Source of the DNA: a bacterium
Lineage (GTDB): Bacteria > Fidelibacterota > UBA2242 > JAFGTP01
NCBI GenBank assembly: GCA_035312185.1
Contig: DATGCI010000137.1
Coordinates: 2,557-34,556 of the forward strand
DNA: 32,000 nucleotides
Direction of reading: 5' to 3'
Below the pieces are notes generated by a model, which was given only the letters and a program-made list of their open reading frames with translations, had not been told where the DNA came from and ran no database searches. Position numbers and translations under genes: made by a program. Numbering within the stretch: position 1 is the first letter of the stretch; each line of letters begins with the position of its first letter. Shown piece by piece: positions 1,593-17,822 of the stretch.

Positions 1593-3389
1593 ATGGATAT
1601 AAATGTAAGAAATTTTTCAATAATCGCCCACATTGACCATGGTAAATCCACACTTGCTGATCGCATGCTGGAAGCCACCAAGACTGTTCAGCAGCGGAAT
1701 ATGAAAGATCAGGTGCTGGATAATATGGATCTGGAGCGAGAGCGAGGCATTACTATAAAATCCCATCCCATTCGCATGAAATATCATCATTCTGATGGTG
1801 AAGATTATATTTTAAATTTGATCGACACTCCCGGTCATGTGGATTTTTCCTATGAAGTATCCCGCAGTTTGGCAGCCTGTGAAGGTGCTTTGCTTTTAGT
1901 TGATGCTGCTCAAGGTGTCGAAGCCCAGACTGTAAGTAATGCCTACCTGGCCATAGAAAACGACCTAGAAATCATACCTGTGATCAATAAAATTGATCTT
2001 TCCAGTGCCAGGCTCGAAAATACAACTAGAGAAGTGGTCGATCTGGTGGGCTGTGATGAAGATGAAATTATTTACGCCAGCGCCAAAGAAGGCGACGGCA
2101 TCGAAGATATTTTCTCAGCCATTATTGAGAAGGTTCCTCCTCCTGAACATGAACCTGACAAACCGCTTCGGGCTTTAATATTTGATTCCAATTATGATCC
2201 TTATCAGGGAGCAGTGCCTCATATCAGAATCTTCGAAGGTCAAGTTGAGGTCAATGATTTTGTCCAATTCTTCTCTGATAAGAAGAAACTGGAAGTTTCT
2301 GAATTGGGCTACTTCATTATGGGCAAGCAAAAGACCAAAAAACTTACTTCCGGTGATGTTGGCTATCTGGTATGTGGCTTAAAAGATATTTCCCGAATTG
2401 AAGTTGGCGACACAATTACTGGCTGGAAAAATCCGGCCGAGGAGAGATTACCAGGCTACAAATCTATCAAGCCTATGGTTTTTAGTGGAATGTATCCTGT
2501 CAATCCGGATGATTATAAAGAGTTGCGCAAGGCTCTCGACAAAATGAAATTAAATGATTCTTCATTGACCTTTGAGCCGGAAAATTCTGGTGCTTTGGGT
2601 TTTGGATTTCGCTGTGGCTATCTGGGCATGCTGCATATGGAAGTTATTCAGGAAAGGCTAGAGAGAGAATTCGATATAGAGCTGATCACCACAGTACCCA
2701 ATGTTAAATATTATGCTATTCTCAAAGATGGTGAAAAAATTGAAGTTGAAACACCATTCGATATGCCTCAAGCTAGTAAGATCGAAACTATGCTGGAGCC
2801 CTATGTAAAAGCTGAGGTTATTACGCCTGATGAATATGTTGGTAATGTGATGAAATTATGCGAAGCCAAACGCGGTAATTATGTTTCCACTCATTATTTG
2901 GATATGAAAAAAGTTCAAATAGAATATGAACTACCTATGATGGAAATGATCTATGATTTTTATGATAAATTGAAATCAACCACCCGTGGTTATGCCTCCT
3001 TTGATTATGAATCTATTGGTTACAAGGAAGGTGATCTTGTTAAAGTTGATATTCTGGTTAACAAAGAGCCTCTTGATCCTCTCTCTTTTATCACTCACGA
3101 TGATGATGCTTATTATAAAGGCCGAGAACTTTGCCGCCGACTCAAAGAATTGATCCCCAAGCATATGTTTGAGATACCAATTCAGGCCGCGATTGGCAAC
3201 AAAGTTGTCGCAAGAACTAATATCAAAGCTCTTCGCAAAAATGTAACTGCTAAATGTTATGGTGGTGATGTTACCAGGAAAAGAAAATTGATAGAAAAGC
3301 AAAAAGAAGGCAAAAAACGATTAAAGAAAGTGGGGAGCGTTGATGTCCCTCAGGAAGCCTTTTTCGCTATTCTGGATACCAATAAATAG
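1593..3389 (+). CDS. lepA: Translation elongation factor 4 (LepA)
   Basis: 598 aa. The N-terminus [21 protein letters not shown] carries the G1 box, followed by DTPGHVDF (G3) and NKIDL (G4). The LepA-specific C-terminal region reads [25 protein letters not shown]. Confidence 0.97.
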
Positions 3390-3390
3390 T

Positions 3391-4824
3391 TTACTCTTCA
3401 CAAAATTCTATATAAGCACGTGAGATAATAATTCCATTATTTTTGACTACAACCGGGTACTTTTTGCCCTGTCCATTTACTGAATATTTACTCCACATGT
3501 CCTGTGGAGTTATCCAGTAATTGCGGTCTTCTCCTCTATTAAAATCAACTGGCGGAACAAAGCCTTTCAGATTGACTTGCAAATGCTGTCCCGGAAATTC
3601 CGGAGAGTAAACATCAATAATCTTAAAACGGACACCATTGGTTAATCGGGCGGTCTGACCATCAAGAAAGACAATTTTATGACCACCATTCGCCAGTACA
3701 TAGGTTATTCTCTGGCTATCAATTGATTTTAAATCGATATAGATCTTACCAATTAAATCAGAATCTTTTTTAACCCGGATTTCTGTGGATCTGGTAATAG
3801 TTATTTCCTGCTGAAAATCCTGTTCGGTTCCCGAGCCAATAATATTGCAACTGATTCCTCTTTGATAATTGGAATTAACCCGGGTAATTTTTATTTGATC
3901 GCCGGGAAAGACCCTCAGTGTATCATAATTTTCCACAAAGACAGGCCGTTGCCTATTAACAGAAATATTCATATTATTAAGTTTGGGAGGCGAGATAATG
4001 ACCGAGGGAAATTCAGGCACTACTCCCATCATTTCCAGAAAGGCGTTGATTGCATAATTATGATATCTGATTTTATCTTCAAGGTTGTCAATATTTTTTG
4101 AGGCTTCTATTCCAAAAGCCGGTATTCCTAGATTGGAGACCGCATAAAAAGTGGCTGATTGTTTCATTTCAGGAAAATTACTATTCTTGGCCAGCGTCTT
4201 TGTATTCATAAAATGGAGTTTATGATAGGAATTGGTGATATGATTGTTGGCTTTTTCAACTGCTTTTCGGGCCATTTTCCCTAAATAAATTGTATCGCCC
4301 TGGTGAACATAGGTTTCAGTATCGGCAATAATTGATTGGCCGAATCTATTTGGATTGCGCCCCGGCCCTTCCCACTTTTTAGAGTAGAAGCCCCAGCCAT
4401 CGTGTAAATTCAAAACCAGATCCGATTCTTTCATGAGATCGGTAATTATCTGGACAATTTTGTCTTCATAAATATTATCGGGGGATACATTAAATCTTCG
4501 ATTCATATCTGTGTTTATATAGCGCCGCTTTTTGATAATGGAATGAAAATTAGTGCGGGGTACGACTATTAGATTGCCTTTTTTCAGCATAAGATCTGAA
4601 TATAGATCAGCAGACAGATATCCGCCAGGTTCATCTCCCTGTATTCCCCCAATGATCAAAACAGTTTTACCGTCCTCTTCACCGTACAATTTATAGACAT
4701 TGAGTTCATTACGTGTGTTTTCATAATAGACATTGTGGTCCCGGCGAGGCTGCTTAGCAGTAAGAATGCCCGCCAATATGTTCATTAGTACTAATATTTT
4801 GATAATGTTCTTCATTGCCACCAT
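3391..4824 (-). CDS. Secreted M14-like carboxypeptidase with a Q-x-x-E metal motif (Csd4/Pgp1-like, peptidoglycan peptide trimming) plus a C-terminal beta-rich region
   Basis: 477 aa with a signal-like N-terminus (MKNIIKILVLMNILAGILTA). VLIIGGIQGDEPGGY sits where M14 enzymes carry HxxE. NLHDGWGF is a candidate third metal ligand. An alternative start at 4815 would give an ATGA overlap with the upstream stop. Confidence 0.6.
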   Translation of the reverse strand: MVAMKNIIKILVLMNILAGILTAKQPRRDHNVYYENTRNELNVYKLYGEEDGKTVLIIGGIQGDEPGGYLSADLYSDLMLKKGNLIVVPRTNFHSIIKKRRYINTDMNRRFNVSPDNIYEDKIVQIITDLMKESDLVLNLHDGWGFYSKKWEGPGRNPNRFGQSIIADTETYVHQGDTIYLGKMARKAVEKANNHITNSYHKLHFMNTKTLAKNSNFPEMKQSATFYAVSNLGIPAFGIEASKNIDNLEDKIRYHNYAINAFLEMMGVVPEFPSVIISPPKLNNMNISVNRQRPVFVENYDTLRVFPGDQIKITRVNSNYQRGISCNIIGSGTEQDFQQEITITRSTEIRVKKDSDLIGKIYIDLKSIDSQRITYVLANGGHKIVFLDGQTARLTNGVRFKIIDVYSPEFPGQHLQVNLKGFVPPVDFNRGEDRNYWITPQDMWSKYSVNGQGKKYPVVVKNNGIIISRAYIEFCEE

Positions 4825-6662
4825 TTTTCATCTATGATTTTAAAATTTCCAGGCCTTCCTGTGATGATCAGCAATTTATTACCACTGTCAGCATACCCGG
4901 TTGAATTATAGTCCTGCTTAAAGCTAACTTCCCAGGTATATTTCTGATCACTTTCCACCTCATAACCATAAGTTTTTACTTCAATCTTATCTGTTGCCTG
5001 AAACTTTGAGGCCTTGTCATCTTCCCAGCCTTCTCGGTCGAATTCACCGGAGTTAAAATCCTGAGCATAGTATTGCATATAATTATCAATCTGCTGTGAT
5101 TCCCAGGCTTTCTGCCATTCATCAACAAATTGGATTAATGCTGTGCGAATATTTGTTCTTTGGCCGCGAGTGAAGTCTTCAGTTATTATTTTCCAGCCCT
5201 GTGACTCTCTTGATAAAACAAGAGATTTCTGGCCTTTTGAGAAAAATCGAGGACAATTGTATCGCTGATCAAATTTTATCTGAATATTTTCGCCTTCAAC
5301 AGTATAATCCAAACTATCTATATTGACATCTTTCCAGGCATAAACCTGTTCAAGCCGTTTTTTTCTACGAGCAAAACTTTGATAATTATCACTAGAAGTT
5401 GAAAAATTATCCTGAGAATAATGGGCCAGGTATTCATCCATCTGTCCCTTATTCCAGCTCTGAACCCAATTTTCAGAAAATGTTCCTGTAAATTCTTTTA
5501 GACTAACTTCTTTTTGTTTTTTATAATTTTCTTCGATAGGAGTCCAGTTTCCATTATTGAAATCCAAAAAGGCTTTGTTACTGGCTTCAACTATTTTTTG
5601 GTTATTCAGAAAAGTGAGATCGAAAGCTGCAAATACTTTCTCAGATTCAAGACCAGTATCGAGATCATTAATTAAAATTTTTCCCGGCACTGTATCCTGA
5701 TTTCCGGAATTGATATTTTTTCTATTGTTTTCAGTCCACTGAGAAAGGAATTCATCAATAGTTTCTTGAAAATCAAAGCGTTGATCAGACGGTCCATAAT
5801 CTTCAGTAATAATCTTCCAATCATGGGAGTTCTTAACAAAAGTTAGTTCTTTCGGACCGACTGAAATAAAATCGGGAGTTATATATTCCTGTTCAAATAC
5901 AATTCGAGCTTCATAATCAGCAGAAAAAACCTGTACATTTTCAGTATTAATCTTTTTCCAGTTAATATTCTGATCGATTCGCTCTTTCCGCTCGATATAG
6001 GATTCCAGACTCTGATCAGAATGGAAATTTGGTGAGTAAAACTTTTCATAGGAATTAAATTTACCAGTCTGCCAGGCCTGTTTCCAGTTCTGCAGAACTA
6101 ATTCCCAATTTTTTAATCTAGCATGATAAGTTGAAAAATCGGTACGAGCCAGAGAGTCATAGATTAATACCTTCGTCTTTCCCAGATCAACAAATTTTTT
6201 ATTGACCTCCAGGATTCTATGATTTTCCAGTGACACACAACCTTTGGTCTGACGGGGTTCCAGTTTTTCATTTCGTCCGTGAACCCAGATATTAGTACCG
6301 CCATTTCCCAGAGCTCTGTCCACATGATTAGGATAATCCAGAATCAAAGCTAGAGGGCCATATATTTCTGGCAGATCCCTATCAGTGAGCTTGCTGACAA
6401 TTGTGTAAACCCCTTCCGGAGTTTTTTTATCACCTTCTACTCTTTTATCGCCCCGGCTGGAACCTGTGCTGGCCTCAATAGAATCTACCACTTTCAACCT
6501 TCCCGGTCCCTGACTGGTAAATATATAAAACATCTGCCTGGACTTATCCACTACAAAAACAGGATCAGTAGAATCTGATGAAATATTATAGAATCCAGGT
6601 AAATTGTACCCCCAGAGCACATAGCCAAATATTAATACAACAGAAATAATCCTTTTACACAA
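4812..6662 (-). CDS. YkuD-fold L,D-transpeptidase/L,D-carboxypeptidase domain protein with four tandem NTF2-like C-terminal modules (Csd6/Pgp2-like architecture)
   Basis: 616 aa. The YkuD signature reads NIWVHGRNE...RQTKGCVSLEN (HG...GC). Repeated modules follow of the form W..AW....Y...Y..F ... WKIITEDY/F. The start is TTG at 6662, preceded by AGGTGG 7 nt upstream. The N-terminus is hydrophobic. Confidence 0.8.
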   Translation of the reverse strand: MCKRIISVVLIFGYVLWGYNLPGFYNISSDSTDPVFVVDKSRQMFYIFTSQGPGRLKVVDSIEASTGSSRGDKRVEGDKKTPEGVYTIVSKLTDRDLPEIYGPLALILDYPNHVDRALGNGGTNIWVHGRNEKLEPRQTKGCVSLENHRILEVNKKFVDLGKTKVLIYDSLARTDFSTYHARLKNWELVLQNWKQAWQTGKFNSYEKFYSPNFHSDQSLESYIERKERIDQNINWKKINTENVQVFSADYEARIVFEQEYITPDFISVGPKELTFVKNSHDWKIITEDYGPSDQRFDFQETIDEFLSQWTENNRKNINSGNQDTVPGKILINDLDTGLESEKVFAAFDLTFLNNQKIVEASNKAFLDFNNGNWTPIEENYKKQKEVSLKEFTGTFSENWVQSWNKGQMDEYLAHYSQDNFSTSSDNYQSFARRKKRLEQVYAWKDVNIDSLDYTVEGENIQIKFDQRYNCPRFFSKGQKSLVLSRESQGWKIITEDFTRGQRTNIRTALIQFVDEWQKAWESQQIDNYMQYYAQDFNSGEFDREGWEDDKASKFQATDKIEVKTYGYEVESDQKYTWEVSFKQDYNSTGYADSGNKLLIITGRPGNFKIIDEKWWQ

Positions 6663-6988
6663 ACTTTTACCACCTAAAATTTATTTTGCTGATTACGGAA
6701 AATTGCATTCTAAATAGTGCCTCAAATAAATCTCAACTTTAGTTACAATCTTTTTTGTTTGCCCATCCTTCTTTTAATGGATTACAAACAACAATTCAAT
6801 TTTGTGCTCGAAATATAACAATTATTGATTTTAAAGACAAAAATATTTTTAATTCGATATATAAACTTTTTTATATGAAATGCAGTTTAAACAAATCATG
6901 TCTAATTCATAATACAGAATTTTTCCAATATTATACAGAAAAAAATAGTTCCTGGTCAAATTATCTTTATTCTTAGTCTTCAAAAAAG

Positions 6989-7003
6989 TAGATAACTTAT
7001 CTA
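6989..7003. promoter_or_regulatory. Perfect 15-bp palindrome TAGATAAcTTATCTA (operator-like) in a divergent intergenic region
   Basis: Read directly from the sequence. An additional TATCTA half-site lies at about 7019. The palindrome sits about 117 bp upstream of the CPBP gene. Confidence 0.25.
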
Positions 7004-7119
7004 TAAACTTAAGGTGCCCTATCTATTTTATAAATAAAGTTATTATAATTTATTCTCCGGAAAGTTAAATTTCATCCTGCTTTTCCTTGATTAATTAAGA
7101 TAATTAATATAATCTAGAG

Positions 7120-12287: not shown

Positions 12288-13076
12288 CTAGGGCTTAACT
12301 ATTATATAATTTAAATTTAATTTGCGCTCAATTTCCATCCCTATCTGTTTGGCTCTAGCCCGCGATGGATAGGGTCCCAGTTTGACAGCTTGAAACTTCT
12401 GATTGGTCTCTTTCTCCTGAAGGTAAGCTTTATACCCCTGTGATTTGAGTTCCTTCATCAAAGAGCGGGCATTATCAGGATTGGAGAAAACACCGATCTG
12501 AATAGAAAATTGTTCGGAGTCCTGGTGAGCCGGGCGACTTTTTCTCTGCCCCTCACTAATCGTGTACAGAGACAGATATTCCGAATCTTTCAGATAGGGT
12601 TGCAATTCCGGATAGCTATTTTCCAATTTGTTTCTATAAAAATCGATCAAGTCAGTCCTATTAATAGCCTTTAAGCTGCAAAACAGAAGAGGCACTACAT
12701 CTTTGGTCAATTCTGAATCCGAATGCTCGGTGATAAACTCTTTGGACATCTCCACAGTTTTATGATATAGGCCCGTGGTATAATTATATTTGATCAATTC
12801 AACAGTGGCTTTGAGAGCGGTTTGAGAATCAGGATATTGGTTTATTATCCGGTTATAGATGCGGACAGATGTTTCAGCATCATCTTCTACAACAGCAGAT
12901 AGAAAAAGCACTTCAGGATTATCTGGATAATTGTCCAGAAGCTGTTCTACGGCATTTCGAACCGATTTTAATTTGCCAGCCTCAATATCACGGTAATATT
13001 TCTCCAGATTTTGGCCAGTCAATAGAATTGTTGTGAAAATAAATAATGTAATTAATTTTTTCATAGCTCTAATCAT
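12288..13076 (-). CDS. SPOR-domain protein with signal peptide and TPR-like helical region
   Basis: The C-terminal FSIQIGVFSNPDNARSLMKELKSQGYKAYL...VKLGPYPSRARA fits the SPOR fold pattern. An alternative start MKKLITLF lies at 13064. Confidence 0.75.
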   Translation of the reverse strand: MIRAMKKLITLFIFTTILLTGQNLEKYYRDIEAGKLKSVRNAVEQLLDNYPDNPEVLFLSAVVEDDAETSVRIYNRIINQYPDSQTALKATVELIKYNYTTGLYHKTVEMSKEFITEHSDSELTKDVVPLLFCSLKAINRTDLIDFYRNKLENSYPELQPYLKDSEYLSLYTISEGQRKSRPAHQDSEQFSIQIGVFSNPDNARSLMKELKSQGYKAYLQEKETNQKFQAVKLGPYPSRARAKQIGMEIERKLNLNYIIVKP

Positions 13077-14214
13077 TAAAAAATGTATCGATTAAACCGC
13101 ATTCCGGACAGATCCAGGATATTTTATCAACCTTATGTCCACAATTGGAGCAAACATATTCATTTTTACGTTCAATTTGCTCCATAATATCAATAAGTAA
13201 ATTTTTTGTTTTATGGCTATTGTCATCAACGAGAATGCGGGCCAGACTGATCTTGGCTTTTAAAGATTCAGGATGCTTGTCAATAATATTTTCGATCAGG
13301 GAAATGGCTTCATCAGTTTTTCCCTTGCGAACTTTATATTCAGCCAGTTCAATGCTCGTTTCCAGATGATAGGGTACTTCTTCCAGCACATCTTTGTAAT
13401 AATTGTAAATTTCGTCAAAACGATTCTGCTGAAAGAGCACTTTTTTGAGTTGGGGATAGATCAAGTGGGAGCGTTGAGGGGCTTTATCCAGAAATTTTTT
13501 CCACCATTCTATAGCATCATCCGGACGATCATCTTTAATATAAGAGTCAGCCATATAATAATAGGGCGCCTCACAGCTGCGATCGTATTTGCGAGCCTTG
13601 CGAAATATCAAGCGGGCGTCATGATAATTTTTATTATCATATTTTTGAAGTCCTTCTCTGGTTTTGTAGATTGCTAGCAAACGTTTATTGGACTTATTTT
13701 TCTTATCATAAGTCTTTAAATGCTCAAAAGCCTCTTTCCAGCGATTCAAATCCCGGTATAATTTCCAGGCCGTTTTCAAAGCCCATTCATTGTCACTGTC
13801 CAAGTCAAGGACTTCCTGAGTAGTTTTTATAGCTTTTTCTTTATCATCAAGAGCTTTATAATCCTCAGTCACTTGAGTCAGAACACTAATTCTTTGACTT
13901 TTAGTAATGTTCTGGCGAAAAAGGAGACTTTTATGAATCTTAAGAGCTTTCCCCGGCTTATCCACTTTTCGGAAAAGCATGCCCAATTTGATATAAACAT
14001 CAATATTTTTGGTATGTTCTGTGTCATTGTAAACATATTTCTTAAAACAGTCGATAGCCTCCTGATAATTACCACTGATCATATGATTGAGGCCGCGTGT
14101 ATATAGGCTTCCACTATCTTCCTGTCCCCTATTTGAGAAGAAAAAATAGTAGATCACCCAGGCTAAAATAGCCACGACAATAATTATTGCTGGAATGAGA
14201 ATATTTGCACCCAT
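13069..14214 (-). CDS. lapB: LapB/YciM-like protein: N-terminal TM helix, TPR repeats and a C-terminal rubredoxin-like zinc finger
   Basis: 381 aa. One N-terminal TM segment is followed by repeated TPR-like helices. The C-terminus reads CSNCGHKVDKISWICPECG. It lies immediately downstream of a LapA-like gene. Confidence 0.7.
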   Translation of the reverse strand: MGANILIPAIIIVVAILAWVIYYFFFSNRGQEDSGSLYTRGLNHMISGNYQEAIDCFKKYVYNDTEHTKNIDVYIKLGMLFRKVDKPGKALKIHKSLLFRQNITKSQRISVLTQVTEDYKALDDKEKAIKTTQEVLDLDSDNEWALKTAWKLYRDLNRWKEAFEHLKTYDKKNKSNKRLLAIYKTREGLQKYDNKNYHDARLIFRKARKYDRSCEAPYYYMADSYIKDDRPDDAIEWWKKFLDKAPQRSHLIYPQLKKVLFQQNRFDEIYNYYKDVLEEVPYHLETSIELAEYKVRKGKTDEAISLIENIIDKHPESLKAKISLARILVDDNSHKTKNLLIDIMEQIERKNEYVCSNCGHKVDKISWICPECGLIDTFFND

Positions 14215-15979: not shown

Positions 15980-16891
15980 TCAGTCCAAAAAGCCCTGGAA
16001 ATAATACTTAGCAGGATTCTTTTTTATACCATAACGGCGTACTTCATAATGCAGGTGAGGGCCAGTACTGCGACCACTGGAGCCAATCTCGCCAATTTTT
16101 TCACCTCTTTTAACTTCCTGTCCGGCATCTACATCATACCTAAGAAGGTGGGCATAAACTGTAGTATATCCATTCCCATGGTCTACATAAACAAGCCGGC
16201 CGTAAGAATGACTATAACGTACTTTGCGTACCACCCCATCAGCGGTAACCAAAACCGATGTCCCTGCTGGTGCAGCAAAGTCAAGACCCCAGTGAAATTT
16301 ACGCTCATTTGTAAAAGGATCCCTTCGATAGCCAAAGCCATCACTAATATAAGCGGCTCGGTCAACCGGTCTTATTGAAGGCGTTGATTTAATCTTGTCA
16401 GAATATTTGCGAAAAGATTCGTAGATCTTGTTGTAGCTAATTCTTTCTAGCTTTATCTTACGCTCTAACCGATCCAGGTCACGAATCAGAGTTGAAATCT
16501 CGAGAGAATCACCAGGCATTAATTTATCCATAGCCTGAGTTTTCTGGATAATTTTTCCACCTATACCGATCTTATTAATGTCTTTATCTATGGAGGGTAA
16601 ATTTACATATGTTCGCAAGGCCTGATCCTTTTTCTCCAGGCTAGATATACTGGATTCCATTTCATCTATCTTTGTGCGGGCCTGCTGAACTGTTTTTGCT
16701 AATTTTTGATTACCCTGTTTTACTTTTGTGAGCTGGGCTTTGTATAAATAGCTCATAAAAAACTTTGCTCCCAGCAAACTTAATGTCAAAACGAGGAGCA
16801 AAAACACAACACCGGAGATTACTAATCTCCGTGTATTTAATTCAATTATATTGGAACTATCATCTGTATTTAAAAACAAGAATTTTTTCAC
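15980..16891 (-). CDS. M23 family metallopeptidase (murein endopeptidase, EnvC/MepM-like) with N-terminal TM and coiled coil
   Basis: HWGLDFAAPAGTSVLVTADG matches HxxxD. The C-terminal GSSGRSTGPHLHYEV matches HxH. Confidence 0.9.
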   Translation of the reverse strand: MKKFLFLNTDDSSNIIELNTRRLVISGVVFLLLVLTLSLLGAKFFMSYLYKAQLTKVKQGNQKLAKTVQQARTKIDEMESSISSLEKKDQALRTYVNLPSIDKDINKIGIGGKIIQKTQAMDKLMPGDSLEISTLIRDLDRLERKIKLERISYNKIYESFRKYSDKIKSTPSIRPVDRAAYISDGFGYRRDPFTNERKFHWGLDFAAPAGTSVLVTADGVVRKVRYSHSYGRLVYVDHGNGYTTVYAHLLRYDVDAGQEVKRGEKIGEIGSSGRSTGPHLHYEVRRYGIKKNPAKYYFQGFLD

Positions 16892-16982: not shown

Positions 16983-17822
16983 TTACAAATACCTTTGTAA
17001 ATGTGAAATCCGTGAAATATGGCGTAACTTCCTGAGAGCTCGTTCTTTGATCTGACGAATGCGTTCCCGTGTCAGATCAAAAATTTCTCCGATTTCTTCT
17101 AGTGTAGCTGGTCTTTCCTGGTCAACTCCAAAATACAATTTCAGAATCTTTTTTTCTCTGGGTTCAAGAGTGTTCAAAGCATGATTCAATTCCTGTTTAA
17201 AAGATTTTTCAAATTGCACCTTTTGCGGAGAACCGTCCTCCTCTGAGGGTAGGATATCTTTTAAAGTATTTTTACTGTCGTCATCAAGAGGAGCATCTAT
17301 GCTCATTGTGCGATTGTTATACTGTTTAAGGGTGGATTTCTTAATGTCCTCGGATTCCATAATTTCATCCAGTTCCTTGGCCGTTGGTTCTCTTTCAAAA
17401 TCCTTGGCAAATTGCGCAGATACCTTCGATATTTTGTTTATATCCCCCACAATATTGAGTGGTAAACGGATCAGCCGAGAATGCTCAGAAATTGCCTGTA
17501 ATATCGTTTGCCTGATCCACCAAACAGCATAACTAATAAACTTAAATCCCTTGGTTTCATCAAATCGTTTAGCCGCTTTAATTAAACCGATATTGCCTTC
17601 ATTAATTAAATCACCCAGAGATAGATTGTGACCCTGATATTTTTTGGCAACTGAAACAACAAAACGAAGATTAGCCCGTAGCAGCTTATCAAGTGCCTTT
17701 GAATCACCTTTTTTGACTTTTTTAACTACCTCAACTTCTTCTTCAGGACTTAAAGGCTTCTCATTTCCGATTTCTTTGAAATATTGCTTTAAAATATGAT
17801 TGTAACTATTGGATGGCGCCAT
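16983..17822 (-). CDS. rpoD: Primary-type sigma-70 family factor, short form lacking region 1.1 (Bacteroidota sigma-AB-like)
   Basis: 279 aa. Region 2 reads ANLRFVVSVAKKYQGHNLSLGDLINEGNIGLIKAAKRFDETKGFKFISYAVWWIRQTILQAI. Region 4.2 reads TLEEIGEIFDLTRERIRQIKERALRKLRH. From memory, this is very close to the roughly 285-aa primary sigma factors of Bacteroidota. Confidence 0.85.
   Translation of the reverse strand: MAPSNSYNHILKQYFKEIGNEKPLSPEEEVEVVKKVKKGDSKALDKLLRANLRFVVSVAKKYQGHNLSLGDLINEGNIGLIKAAKRFDETKGFKFISYAVWWIRQTILQAISEHSRLIRLPLNIVGDINKISKVSAQFAKDFEREPTAKELDEIMESEDIKKSTLKQYNNRTMSIDAPLDDDSKNTLKDILPSEEDGSPQKVQFEKSFKQELNHALNTLEPREKKILKLYFGVDQERPATLEEIGEIFDLTRERIRQIKERALRKLRHISRISHLQRYL

Follow-up and report, generated by a model that had tools for sequence, protein, structure and literature searches.

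A 32,000-nucleotide stretch of a Fidelibacterota genome (contig DATGCI010000137.1, positions 2,557 to 34,556; hereafter the window) carries two overlapping minus-strand genes whose products resemble the peptidoglycan-trimming enzymes Csd6 and Csd4 of Helicobacter pylori. The upstream gene appears to encode an LD-carboxypeptidase of the Csd6/Pgp2/Bd1075 type and the downstream gene a DL-carboxypeptidase of the Csd4/Pgp1 type (family M99). We think it fairly probable that the two proteins work as a pair in the periplasm, trimming uncross-linked stem peptides stepwise and thereby likely setting the cross-linking potential of the wall and the curvature or shape of the cell.

The csd6-like/csd4-like gene pair

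The upstream open reading frame (ORF; 4812-6662, minus strand) begins with a TTG start and encodes 616 amino acids, and the downstream ORF (3391-4824, minus strand) encodes 477, or 474 if translation starts at its second ATG. Both ORFs and an overlap of either 4 or 13 nt had been proposed in an earlier reading made from the sequence alone (hereafter the sequence-only reading), and the coordinates, the stop codon and both ATGs are borne out in the sequence. The database copy of the downstream M99 protein is 474 residues long, which matches the start with the 4-nt overlap. The stop-to-stop frames of the pair also overlap or abut in Marinimicrobia and Deferribacterota loci, and the two genes are probably a translationally coupled two-gene operon. 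The features of the pair are as follows.

4812-6662, minus strand: csd6/pgp2/bd1075-like gene; putative LD-carboxypeptidase that is predicted to be exported or anchored in the membrane and carries four NTF2-like modules
6603-6662, minus strand: N-terminal hydrophobic helix (residues 1-20); putative signal peptide or signal anchor, from which export is predicted
6159-6593, minus strand: YkuD catalytic domain (residues 24-168), with H128 at 6279-6281 and C142 at 6237-6239
5796-6137, minus strand: NTF2-like domain 1, Cds6_C (residues 176-289); profile match at G000:C137:8358-8651, which is window 5802-6095, and AlphaFold2 (AF2) model
5502-5771, minus strand: module of alpha+beta type, truncated (residues 298-387); a single long helix and four strands in the AF2 secondary structure
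5151-5501, minus strand: NTF2-like domain, Cds6_C (residues 388-504); Pfam match at residues 397-495, window 5178-5474
4815-5150, minus strand: NTF2-like domain, Cds6_C (residues 505-616); match at window 4824-5138, and AF2 secondary structure
4812-4824, minus strand: gene overlap; upstream TGA at 4812-4814, downstream ATG at 4813-4815 (ATGA, 4 nt) or 4822-4824 (13 nt)
3391-4824, minus strand: csd4/pgp1-like gene; predicted secreted M99 DL-carboxypeptidase of 477 or 474 amino acids
4021-4746, minus strand: M99 carboxypeptidase domain (residues 27-268), from alignment to Csd4 and translated motifs
4639-4641, 4630-4632, 4402-4404 and 4105-4107, minus strand: M99 key residues Q62, E65, H141 and catalytic E240, respectively, from translation
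3394-3987, minus strand: pair of beta-rich domains at the C-terminus (residues 280-365 and 372-477) that correspond to the beta-barrel and Ig-like domains of Csd4 (AF2 and Foldseek)

The upstream protein begins with CKRIISVVLIFGYVLWGY, and the AF2 model has a helix at residues 2-16. The Pfam YkuD family (PF03734) matches residues 35-167 with an E-value of 1.6e-12, and window positions 6237-6281 on the minus strand encode the HG...GC motif, HGRNEKLEPRQTKGC. The NTF2-like family Cds6_C (PF24125) matches in three stretches (E = 5.5e-46), and the combination of a YkuD fold with NTF2-like modules that the sequence-only reading had recognized is thus present. The AF2 model (predicted local distance difference test, pLDDT, of 93.3) has four alpha+beta modules after the catalytic domain. 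One of these (residues 298-387) has no Pfam match, and its resemblance to the NTF2 domain that follows falls short of significance (E = 0.06); from the model it may be a truncated NTF2-like module. The NTF2 domain at residues 388-504 resembles the last one (E = 3e-9).

Sequence searches of the PDB with the upstream protein found Bd1075 (7o21; E = 1.7e-29), Csd6 (4xzz; 9e-26) and Pgp2 (6xj6; 1e-18), and the same three proteins head the Foldseek matches, with the next unrelated match 13 orders of magnitude weaker. Bd1075 is again the best of them, with an E-value of 5.5e-22, a target-normalized template modeling (TM) score of 0.88 and a root-mean-square deviation (rmsd) of 2.8 Å. With these best matches, and with C-terminal domains that are NTF2 domains of the Cds6_C family, the protein does not appear to be an ordinary LD-transpeptidase, an outcome that had been named beforehand as contrary to the Csd6 assignment. 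The active-site residues are also informative. Mutagenesis of Csd6 has shown that E110, Y133, H155, W158, H160 and C176 are needed for activity (PMC4599014); E110, Y133, W158, H160 and C176 align with E76, Y101, W126, H128 and C142 of the upstream protein, and K107, G161 and G175 of Csd6 align with K73, G129 and G141. K73, Y101, W126, H128 and C142 are invariant in 40 YkuD homologues, and G129 is at least nearly so. Most LD-transpeptidases carry an arginine two residues after the catalytic cysteine (PMC8938487); in the upstream protein this position is S144, and the 40 homologues have A, S, V, E or K there, in no case R. We conclude that the protein is well supported as a Csd6/Pgp2/Bd1075-type enzyme, and LD-carboxypeptidase activity, which in this family turns tetrapeptide stems into tripeptides and makes no 3-3 cross-links, is predicted for it from these sequence comparisons.

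The upstream protein differs from the characterized members of its family in several ways. Csd6 (HP0518; 4XZZ) and Pgp2 (6XJ6) share with it the catalytic triad, the residues corresponding to E110, Y133 and W158, the YkuD plus NTF2 architecture and the lack of an arginine after the cysteine, but they are dimeric and have an N-terminal helical dimerization domain. In the upstream protein this domain is missing and YkuD starts at about residue 24, right after the N-terminal helix; because Bd1075 is without it too, the dimerization domain does not define the wider family. It also departs from Csd6 and Pgp2 in having a Thr in place of H155, a His-to-Cys loop that is two residues shorter, and multiple NTF2 domains. 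Bd1075 (PDB 7O21) of Bdellovibrio bacteriovorus, a monomeric LD-carboxypeptidase that generates vibrioid curvature and is targeted to one cell face by its NTF2 domain (PMC8938487), resembles it most closely, with YkuD followed by NTF2 and a residue other than His at the Csd6 H155 site. However, Bd1075 has a single NTF2 domain and a C-terminal extension with W303, whereas the window protein has three canonical NTF2 domains and the truncated module.

The downstream protein matches Peptidase_M99 (PF17033) at residues 52-268 with 133.2 bits (cut-off 27; E = 1.6e-38), and the closest solved structures by sequence are those of H. pylori Csd4 (PDB 4q6m and 4wck; E = 1e-25). Like those of the upstream protein to YkuD and Cds6_C, this family match is well outside what chance would give. 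It had been described from the sequence as an M14-like enzyme with Q-x-x-E in place of H-x-x-E and likened to Csd4, and both the hidden Markov model (HMM) searches and the structural searches agree. The QGDE of its IQGDE motif is encoded at window 4630-4641 on the minus strand, and the metal ligands Q46, E49 and H128 of Csd4 align with Q62, E65 and H141, with the catalytic E222 aligning with E240. For the two mobile arginines of Csd4, R86 and R94, the counterparts are R101 and R109, and for N93, R147, E202, M203 and T208 they are N108, R160, E219, M220 and T225; the roles of the Csd4 residues, including those of N93, R147, E202, M203 and T208 in holding meso-diaminopimelate (mDAP) and D-Glu, are described in PMC4220969. 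An alignment of 43 M99 homologues shows no variation at Q62, E65, R101, N108, R109, H141 or E240; in its C-terminal part N418, G421, the segment G431-E-D-R434 and W444 are conserved.

The AF2 model of the downstream protein (pLDDT 91) starts with a helix that is hydrophobic in sequence, and its C-terminal part is all-beta, with values mostly of 88-94 and one block at 84. Foldseek places Csd4 first (E = 1.3e-28; 446 columns on the 420-residue target) across the whole three-domain chain. The global TM score is 0.51-0.58 and the rmsd about 15.6 Å, values that we read as a difference in the relative orientation of the domains in the model. The Pfam M99_C and M99_m models have no match in the protein, and its identity to Csd4 is only about 23%. 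Nonetheless, it has in common with Csd4 (HP1075; 4Q6M, 4WCK) and Pgp1 the Peptidase_M99 domain, the Gln-x-x-Glu...His site, the catalytic Glu, the two key arginines, most of the mDAP contacts, the three domains (carboxypeptidase, beta-barrel and Ig-like) and an N-terminal export signal. Family, residues and fold support a Csd4/Pgp1-type DL-carboxypeptidase, for which cleavage of the gamma-D-Glu-mDAP bond in uncross-linked tripeptides is predicted. Because both proteins start with a hydrophobic helix, a periplasmic location of the two enzymes is likely. In H. pylori, in which Csd5 binds Csd4, HP1075 and HP0518 are not neighbors, whereas the two window genes overlap.

Distribution and genomic context of the pair

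The host is a metagenome-assembled genome of 3.0 Mb in 336 contigs and is 76% complete. The closest homologues of both proteins are labelled Candidatus Marinimicrobia or Neomarinimicrobiota (now Fidelibacterota), a phylum of the Fibrobacteres-Chlorobi-Bacteroidetes (FCB) group, and the window has fliF, fliG, fliH and fliI, and the host genome fliM; because of these homologues and fli genes, the earlier label of the genome as 'FCB-like flagellated' is right. To describe the distribution of the pair we searched 41 genomes of the window's order, 277 genomes of the phylum that are at least 85% complete, and one genome per species across the bacteria. Within the order, M99 is present in 39 of 41 genomes and Cds6_C in 38. 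The Cds6_C domains immediately precede M99 on the same contig in 38 of the 39 genomes with M99; neither M99 nor Cds6_C was detected in the two other genomes of the order, which are 90-91% complete. The window's genus has a 616-622-residue form of the Csd6-like protein with three NTF2 domains detectable by Pfam, and in most other genera it is about 430 residues long and has two.

In one relative the Csd6-like frame beside M99 is broken by TGA and TAA stops (G037:C299:5454-6105), the mark of either a pseudogene or a fault in the assembly. The host genome has only one Csd6-like gene, and extra Cds6_C frames of about 400-545 amino acids are present away from M99 in several relatives (G003:C42 and C2; G006:C125 and C9; G010:C3; G012:C2; G005:C270; G009:C64 and C16).

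Across the phylum a strong M99 match was found in 40 of the 277 genomes, which are members of the window's order and of two other families, plus a single outlier; the large pelagic families had no M99 match in this search. The outlier (G258:C25:21122-21808) is outside the order, and its match of 229.8 bits in a 448-residue frame is considerably higher than the approximately 135 bits of the Marinimicrobia type; it could be a separately acquired lineage or a binning artefact. The scan across bacteria identified 80 M99 loci, which come from Neomarinimicrobiota/Fidelibacterota, Desulfobacterales, Desulfarculia, Syntrophales, the Deferribacterota Deferribacter abyssi and Denitrovibrio, and one Latescibacterota bin. 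Of these loci, 70 have a Csd6-like gene upstream of M99 and on its strand, and nine of the ten exceptions have less than 1.9 kb of upstream sequence. In a tree of M99 sequences the Marinimicrobia cluster by themselves (support 98); next to them is a group of four sequences that holds both Deferribacterota sequences (together 99), and the Desulfobacterota group is apart (99). The tree is therefore in broad agreement with phylum boundaries; the same gene order recurs in Deferribacterota and Desulfobacterota, which suggests that the csd6-like/csd4-like pair is ancient and that its two genes have remained linked. The M99 sequence of the Latescibacterota bin (L027) nests within the Desulfobacterales clade, reflecting either horizontal transfer or a mis-binned contig. 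Both families are already annotated by NCBI in other phyla and curated in Pfam, and the gene pair is widespread beyond Fidelibacterota.

The Desulfobacterota-type loci (L027-L091) have a more elaborate arrangement of four genes on the same strand, coding for the Csd6-like protein, a bitopic membrane protein, a Csd4-like protein of about 600 residues, and a bactofilin. Two examples are given below.

L035:1494-6229, all on one strand: four-gene cluster
L059:1445-6132, all on one strand: four-gene cluster

A custom HMM finds the membrane ORF (230-340 amino acids) in 53 loci, and no Pfam family was found for it. A bactofilin is on the strand of the pair in 40 loci and is nearly always directly downstream. 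Both enzyme genes of these clusters are orthologous to those of the window and are in the same order and on the same strand, with 43-46% identity between the M99 proteins. However, the window has the two enzyme genes only, its M99 protein is without the C-terminal extension of about 130 residues, the host bactofilin is elsewhere, beside an M23 peptidase, and the M99 sequences fall in separate groups of the tree. We found no paper describing a Csd6/Csd4/bactofilin cluster, and none linking Marinimicrobia to Csd4. Csd4 goes unmentioned in the paper on Bd1075, where Pgp1 is in the reference list only (PMC8938487). From the role of Bd1075 in Bdellovibrio, action of its family outside Campylobacterota was already known (PMC8938487). 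The window pair stands out in minor ways, by its multiplied NTF2 domains, by its minimal form of just two overlapping genes, and by belonging to a phylum about which little is known.

In the window the pair stands alone, with lepA in convergent orientation on one side and a CAAX-protease gene in divergent orientation on the other. No conserved wall-related neighbors of the pair were seen within the Marinimicrobia: downstream there is lepA in the window and secDF and purA in other genera, and a GT2 glycosyltransferase gene is upstream in seven loci. The region upstream of the operon, and the row of genes that includes the host bactofilin, are as follows.

6663-7119, between divergent genes, no strand assigned: intergenic stretch ahead of the operon, probably its promoter region
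L092 (G000:C1:7535-10825), 1450-1866, 1884-2666 and 2673-3266, all on the minus strand: row of parB, M23 peptidase and bactofilin genes

The intergenic region has minus-strand sigma-70-like matches at 6959-6930 (11/12) and 6736-6707 (10/12), which are matches to a consensus only, and the host may use Bacteroidota-type promoters. The M23-bactofilin row recalls the csd1-ccmA arrangement of H. pylori. Of the Helicobacter-type set of helical-shape genes (Csd1/2/3, CcmA, Csd4, Csd5, Csd6 and Csd7), the host has possible counterparts in the adjoining M23 peptidase and bactofilin, a second M23 peptidase, and the Csd4- and Csd6-like genes. The second M23 peptidase (window 15980-16891, minus strand; 303 amino acids) has a weak coiled-coil-type Pfam match near its N-terminus and lies directly downstream of a 279-aa sigma-70 gene (16983-17822); it may be EnvC-like. 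Two further envelope-related genes of the window overlap just downstream of polA (12288-14214, minus strand); one codes for a SPOR-domain/TPR protein, and the other for a LapB-like TPR protein that has a zinc ribbon.

Possible roles in cell shape, wall turnover and muropeptide salvage

In the mechanism that we infer, the YkuD LD-carboxypeptidase would be exported and would remove the terminal D-Ala from tetrapeptides, and the tandem NTF2-like modules (three canonical and one truncated) are predicted to hold it on, or aim it at, the sacculus. The M99 DL-carboxypeptidase would then remove mDAP from the tripeptides, and the dipeptides that remain could no longer take part in cross-links. With coupled expression both enzymes would be made together, and therefore the product of the first would feed the second. 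The likely outcome is local control of cross-linking potential and, by way of it, of how the cell is curved or shaped, as is known from Helicobacter, Campylobacter and Bdellovibrio. The characterized members of both enzyme families are all shape determinants (PMC3310797, PMC4599014, PMC8938487). The linkage to bactofilin in Desulfobacterota is the best indirect evidence that the pair serves cell shape, and it points to a cytoskeleton-guided placement of the enzymes. A program for curved or helical morphology in the host, as put forward in the sequence-only reading, is plausible by homology and from this linkage in related phyla.

Several observations weigh against this interpretation. At the level of the enzymes, the Csd6 residue H155 is replaced by T123 in the upstream protein; the site varies among the 40 homologues (Y, H, S, T and others), and the active LD-carboxypeptidase Bd1075 has a Ser there. 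The spacing between G129 and C142 is 12 residues, compared with 14 in Csd6 and 13 in Bd1075, and lies outside the x14-19 quoted in PMC4599014. Two Csd4 contact residues, H126 and W148, are N139 and F161 in the downstream protein. At the level of the genome, the only bactofilin of the host is directly downstream of the M23 peptidase and parB in a tight same-strand row that is not linked to the pair, and because a bactofilin is present in 271 of the 277 phylum genomes, its presence is uninformative for shape. The host genome gave no convincing homologue of the Desulfobacterota membrane ORF, the best match (E = 1.6e-4) being to a 115-residue frame. Nor does the pair follow flagella within the phylum. 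FliM matches are present in 21 of the 40 M99-positive phylum genomes and missing in the other 19, and are present in 42 of the 237 M99-negative ones; this association is weak and confounded by phylogeny, and does not support an obligate link between shape and motility. For the named carriers Deferribacter abyssi and Denitrovibrio we found no usable published morphology, and we therefore claim no correlation of shape with genotype.

We have considered three other explanations. One, that neither protein is a peptidoglycan carboxypeptidase and that the genes instead code for an AstE/AspA-type deacylase and an ordinary LD-transpeptidase or DpaA-type amidase, seems to us highly improbable. It draws on a partial Pfam AstE_AspA_cat match to the downstream protein (39.5 bits, residues 51-143), a weak NCBIfam LdtF/DpaA match to the YkuD protein (25 bits against a cut-off of 365), and a sequence match of the latter to the DpaA structure 8ikr (E = 0.0016), all of which are far below the matches to Csd4, Csd6 and Bd1075 and below curated cut-offs. 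We rejected the deacylase identity for the downstream protein with M99 at 133 bits, with the NCBIfam aspartoacylase and desuccinylase models reaching 12-21 bits against cut-offs of 170-306, and with Foldseek E-values of 1e-9 for the AstE/AspA fold and 1e-28 for Csd4. AstE/AspA enzymes are cytoplasmic, whereas both window proteins have export-type N-terminal helices, and the Q-x-x-E motif and Cds6_C domains are specific to the Csd families. The sequence-only reading had named as grounds for abandoning it a placement of the M99 protein with AstE/AspA or another M14 subfamily that has no peptidoglycan link, or of the YkuD protein among ordinary LD-transpeptidases with unrelated C-terminal domains, and neither was found. 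More serious, but still doubtful in our view, is the explanation that the two activities are as predicted with no role in curvature, and that they serve general peptidoglycan maturation or turnover in ordinary rods. The pair would then set the shares of tetra-, tri- and dipeptides, for example limiting cross-linking or LD-transpeptidation or adjusting wall stiffness. This would fit with the near universality of the pair within the order, with or without a FliM match, with the lack of any sequence feature that predicts asymmetric localization, and with the inclusion of taxa labelled Desulfonema and Desulfosudis oleivorans among the related loci. Desulfonema is a filament and Desulfosudis oleivorans a short oval rod. 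It fits less well with the record of both families as shape determinants (PMC3310797, PMC4599014, PMC8938487), with the repeated linkage to bactofilin in Desulfobacterota, and with the targeting of Bd1075 by its NTF2 domain (PMC8938487).

The third explanation is that the enzymes work in the periplasm on pieces of wall that are foreign or salvaged and trim them, releasing D-Ala and mDAP and tailoring stem peptides before their import or re-use, and we regard it as quite unlikely. It is raised by Fidelibacter multiformis IA91, the single isolate that the phylum has. This bacterium is non-motile and grows as irregular to curved rods; it is a peptidoglycan auxotroph that both builds its wall from and feeds on scavenged muropeptides, an auxotrophy that its authors trace to ancestors of the phylum (PMC11652737). 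Consistent with salvage, 22 of the 40 M99-positive phylum genomes gave no MurB_C match, several of these 22 being 96-99% complete, whereas 188 of the 237 M99-negative ones did. Within the window's order only about half of the genomes have MurB_C (two of five in f1 and 12 of 27 in f4); it is missing in f5, f6 and most of f30, and is nearly universal in the other families. The pattern suggests repeated loss of de novo synthesis of wall precursors in clades with the M99/Csd6-like pair. However, the association of MurB with M99 is phylogenetically confounded because it involves essentially one clade, the host genome itself has a MurB match, and family f6 has neither MurB nor M99; one f6 genome that is a single contig had no match to M99, FliM or MurB. 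The pair is also conserved in Desulfobacterota and Deferribacterota, and we know of no report that these are peptidoglycan auxotrophs. Known wall-recycling pathways re-use the tripeptide unit, and cleavage of tripeptide to dipeptide would destroy it. A combination of salvage with shape is also conceivable, although unlikely: in Fidelibacterota with repeated loss of precursor synthesis, the pair might re-tailor salvaged foreign stems, with the NTF2 array acting as a multivalent reader of peptidoglycan state that places the trimming and couples wall salvage to shape. If so, wall salvage and cell shape would be joined through one operon.

We return to stepwise trimming for curvature or shape as the interpretation that we favor. 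The gain is incremental, with both families already in Pfam and in NCBI annotation. Curvature produced by stem-peptide trimming has been studied in only a few organisms, namely Helicobacter, Campylobacter and Bdellovibrio, and the Marinimicrobia/Fidelibacterota are abundant in the environment and are represented by a single isolate, with cell shapes that are almost unknown. The pair may thus provide a handle with which to predict and test cell shape in uncultured lineages, and to probe the role of the extra NTF2 domains.

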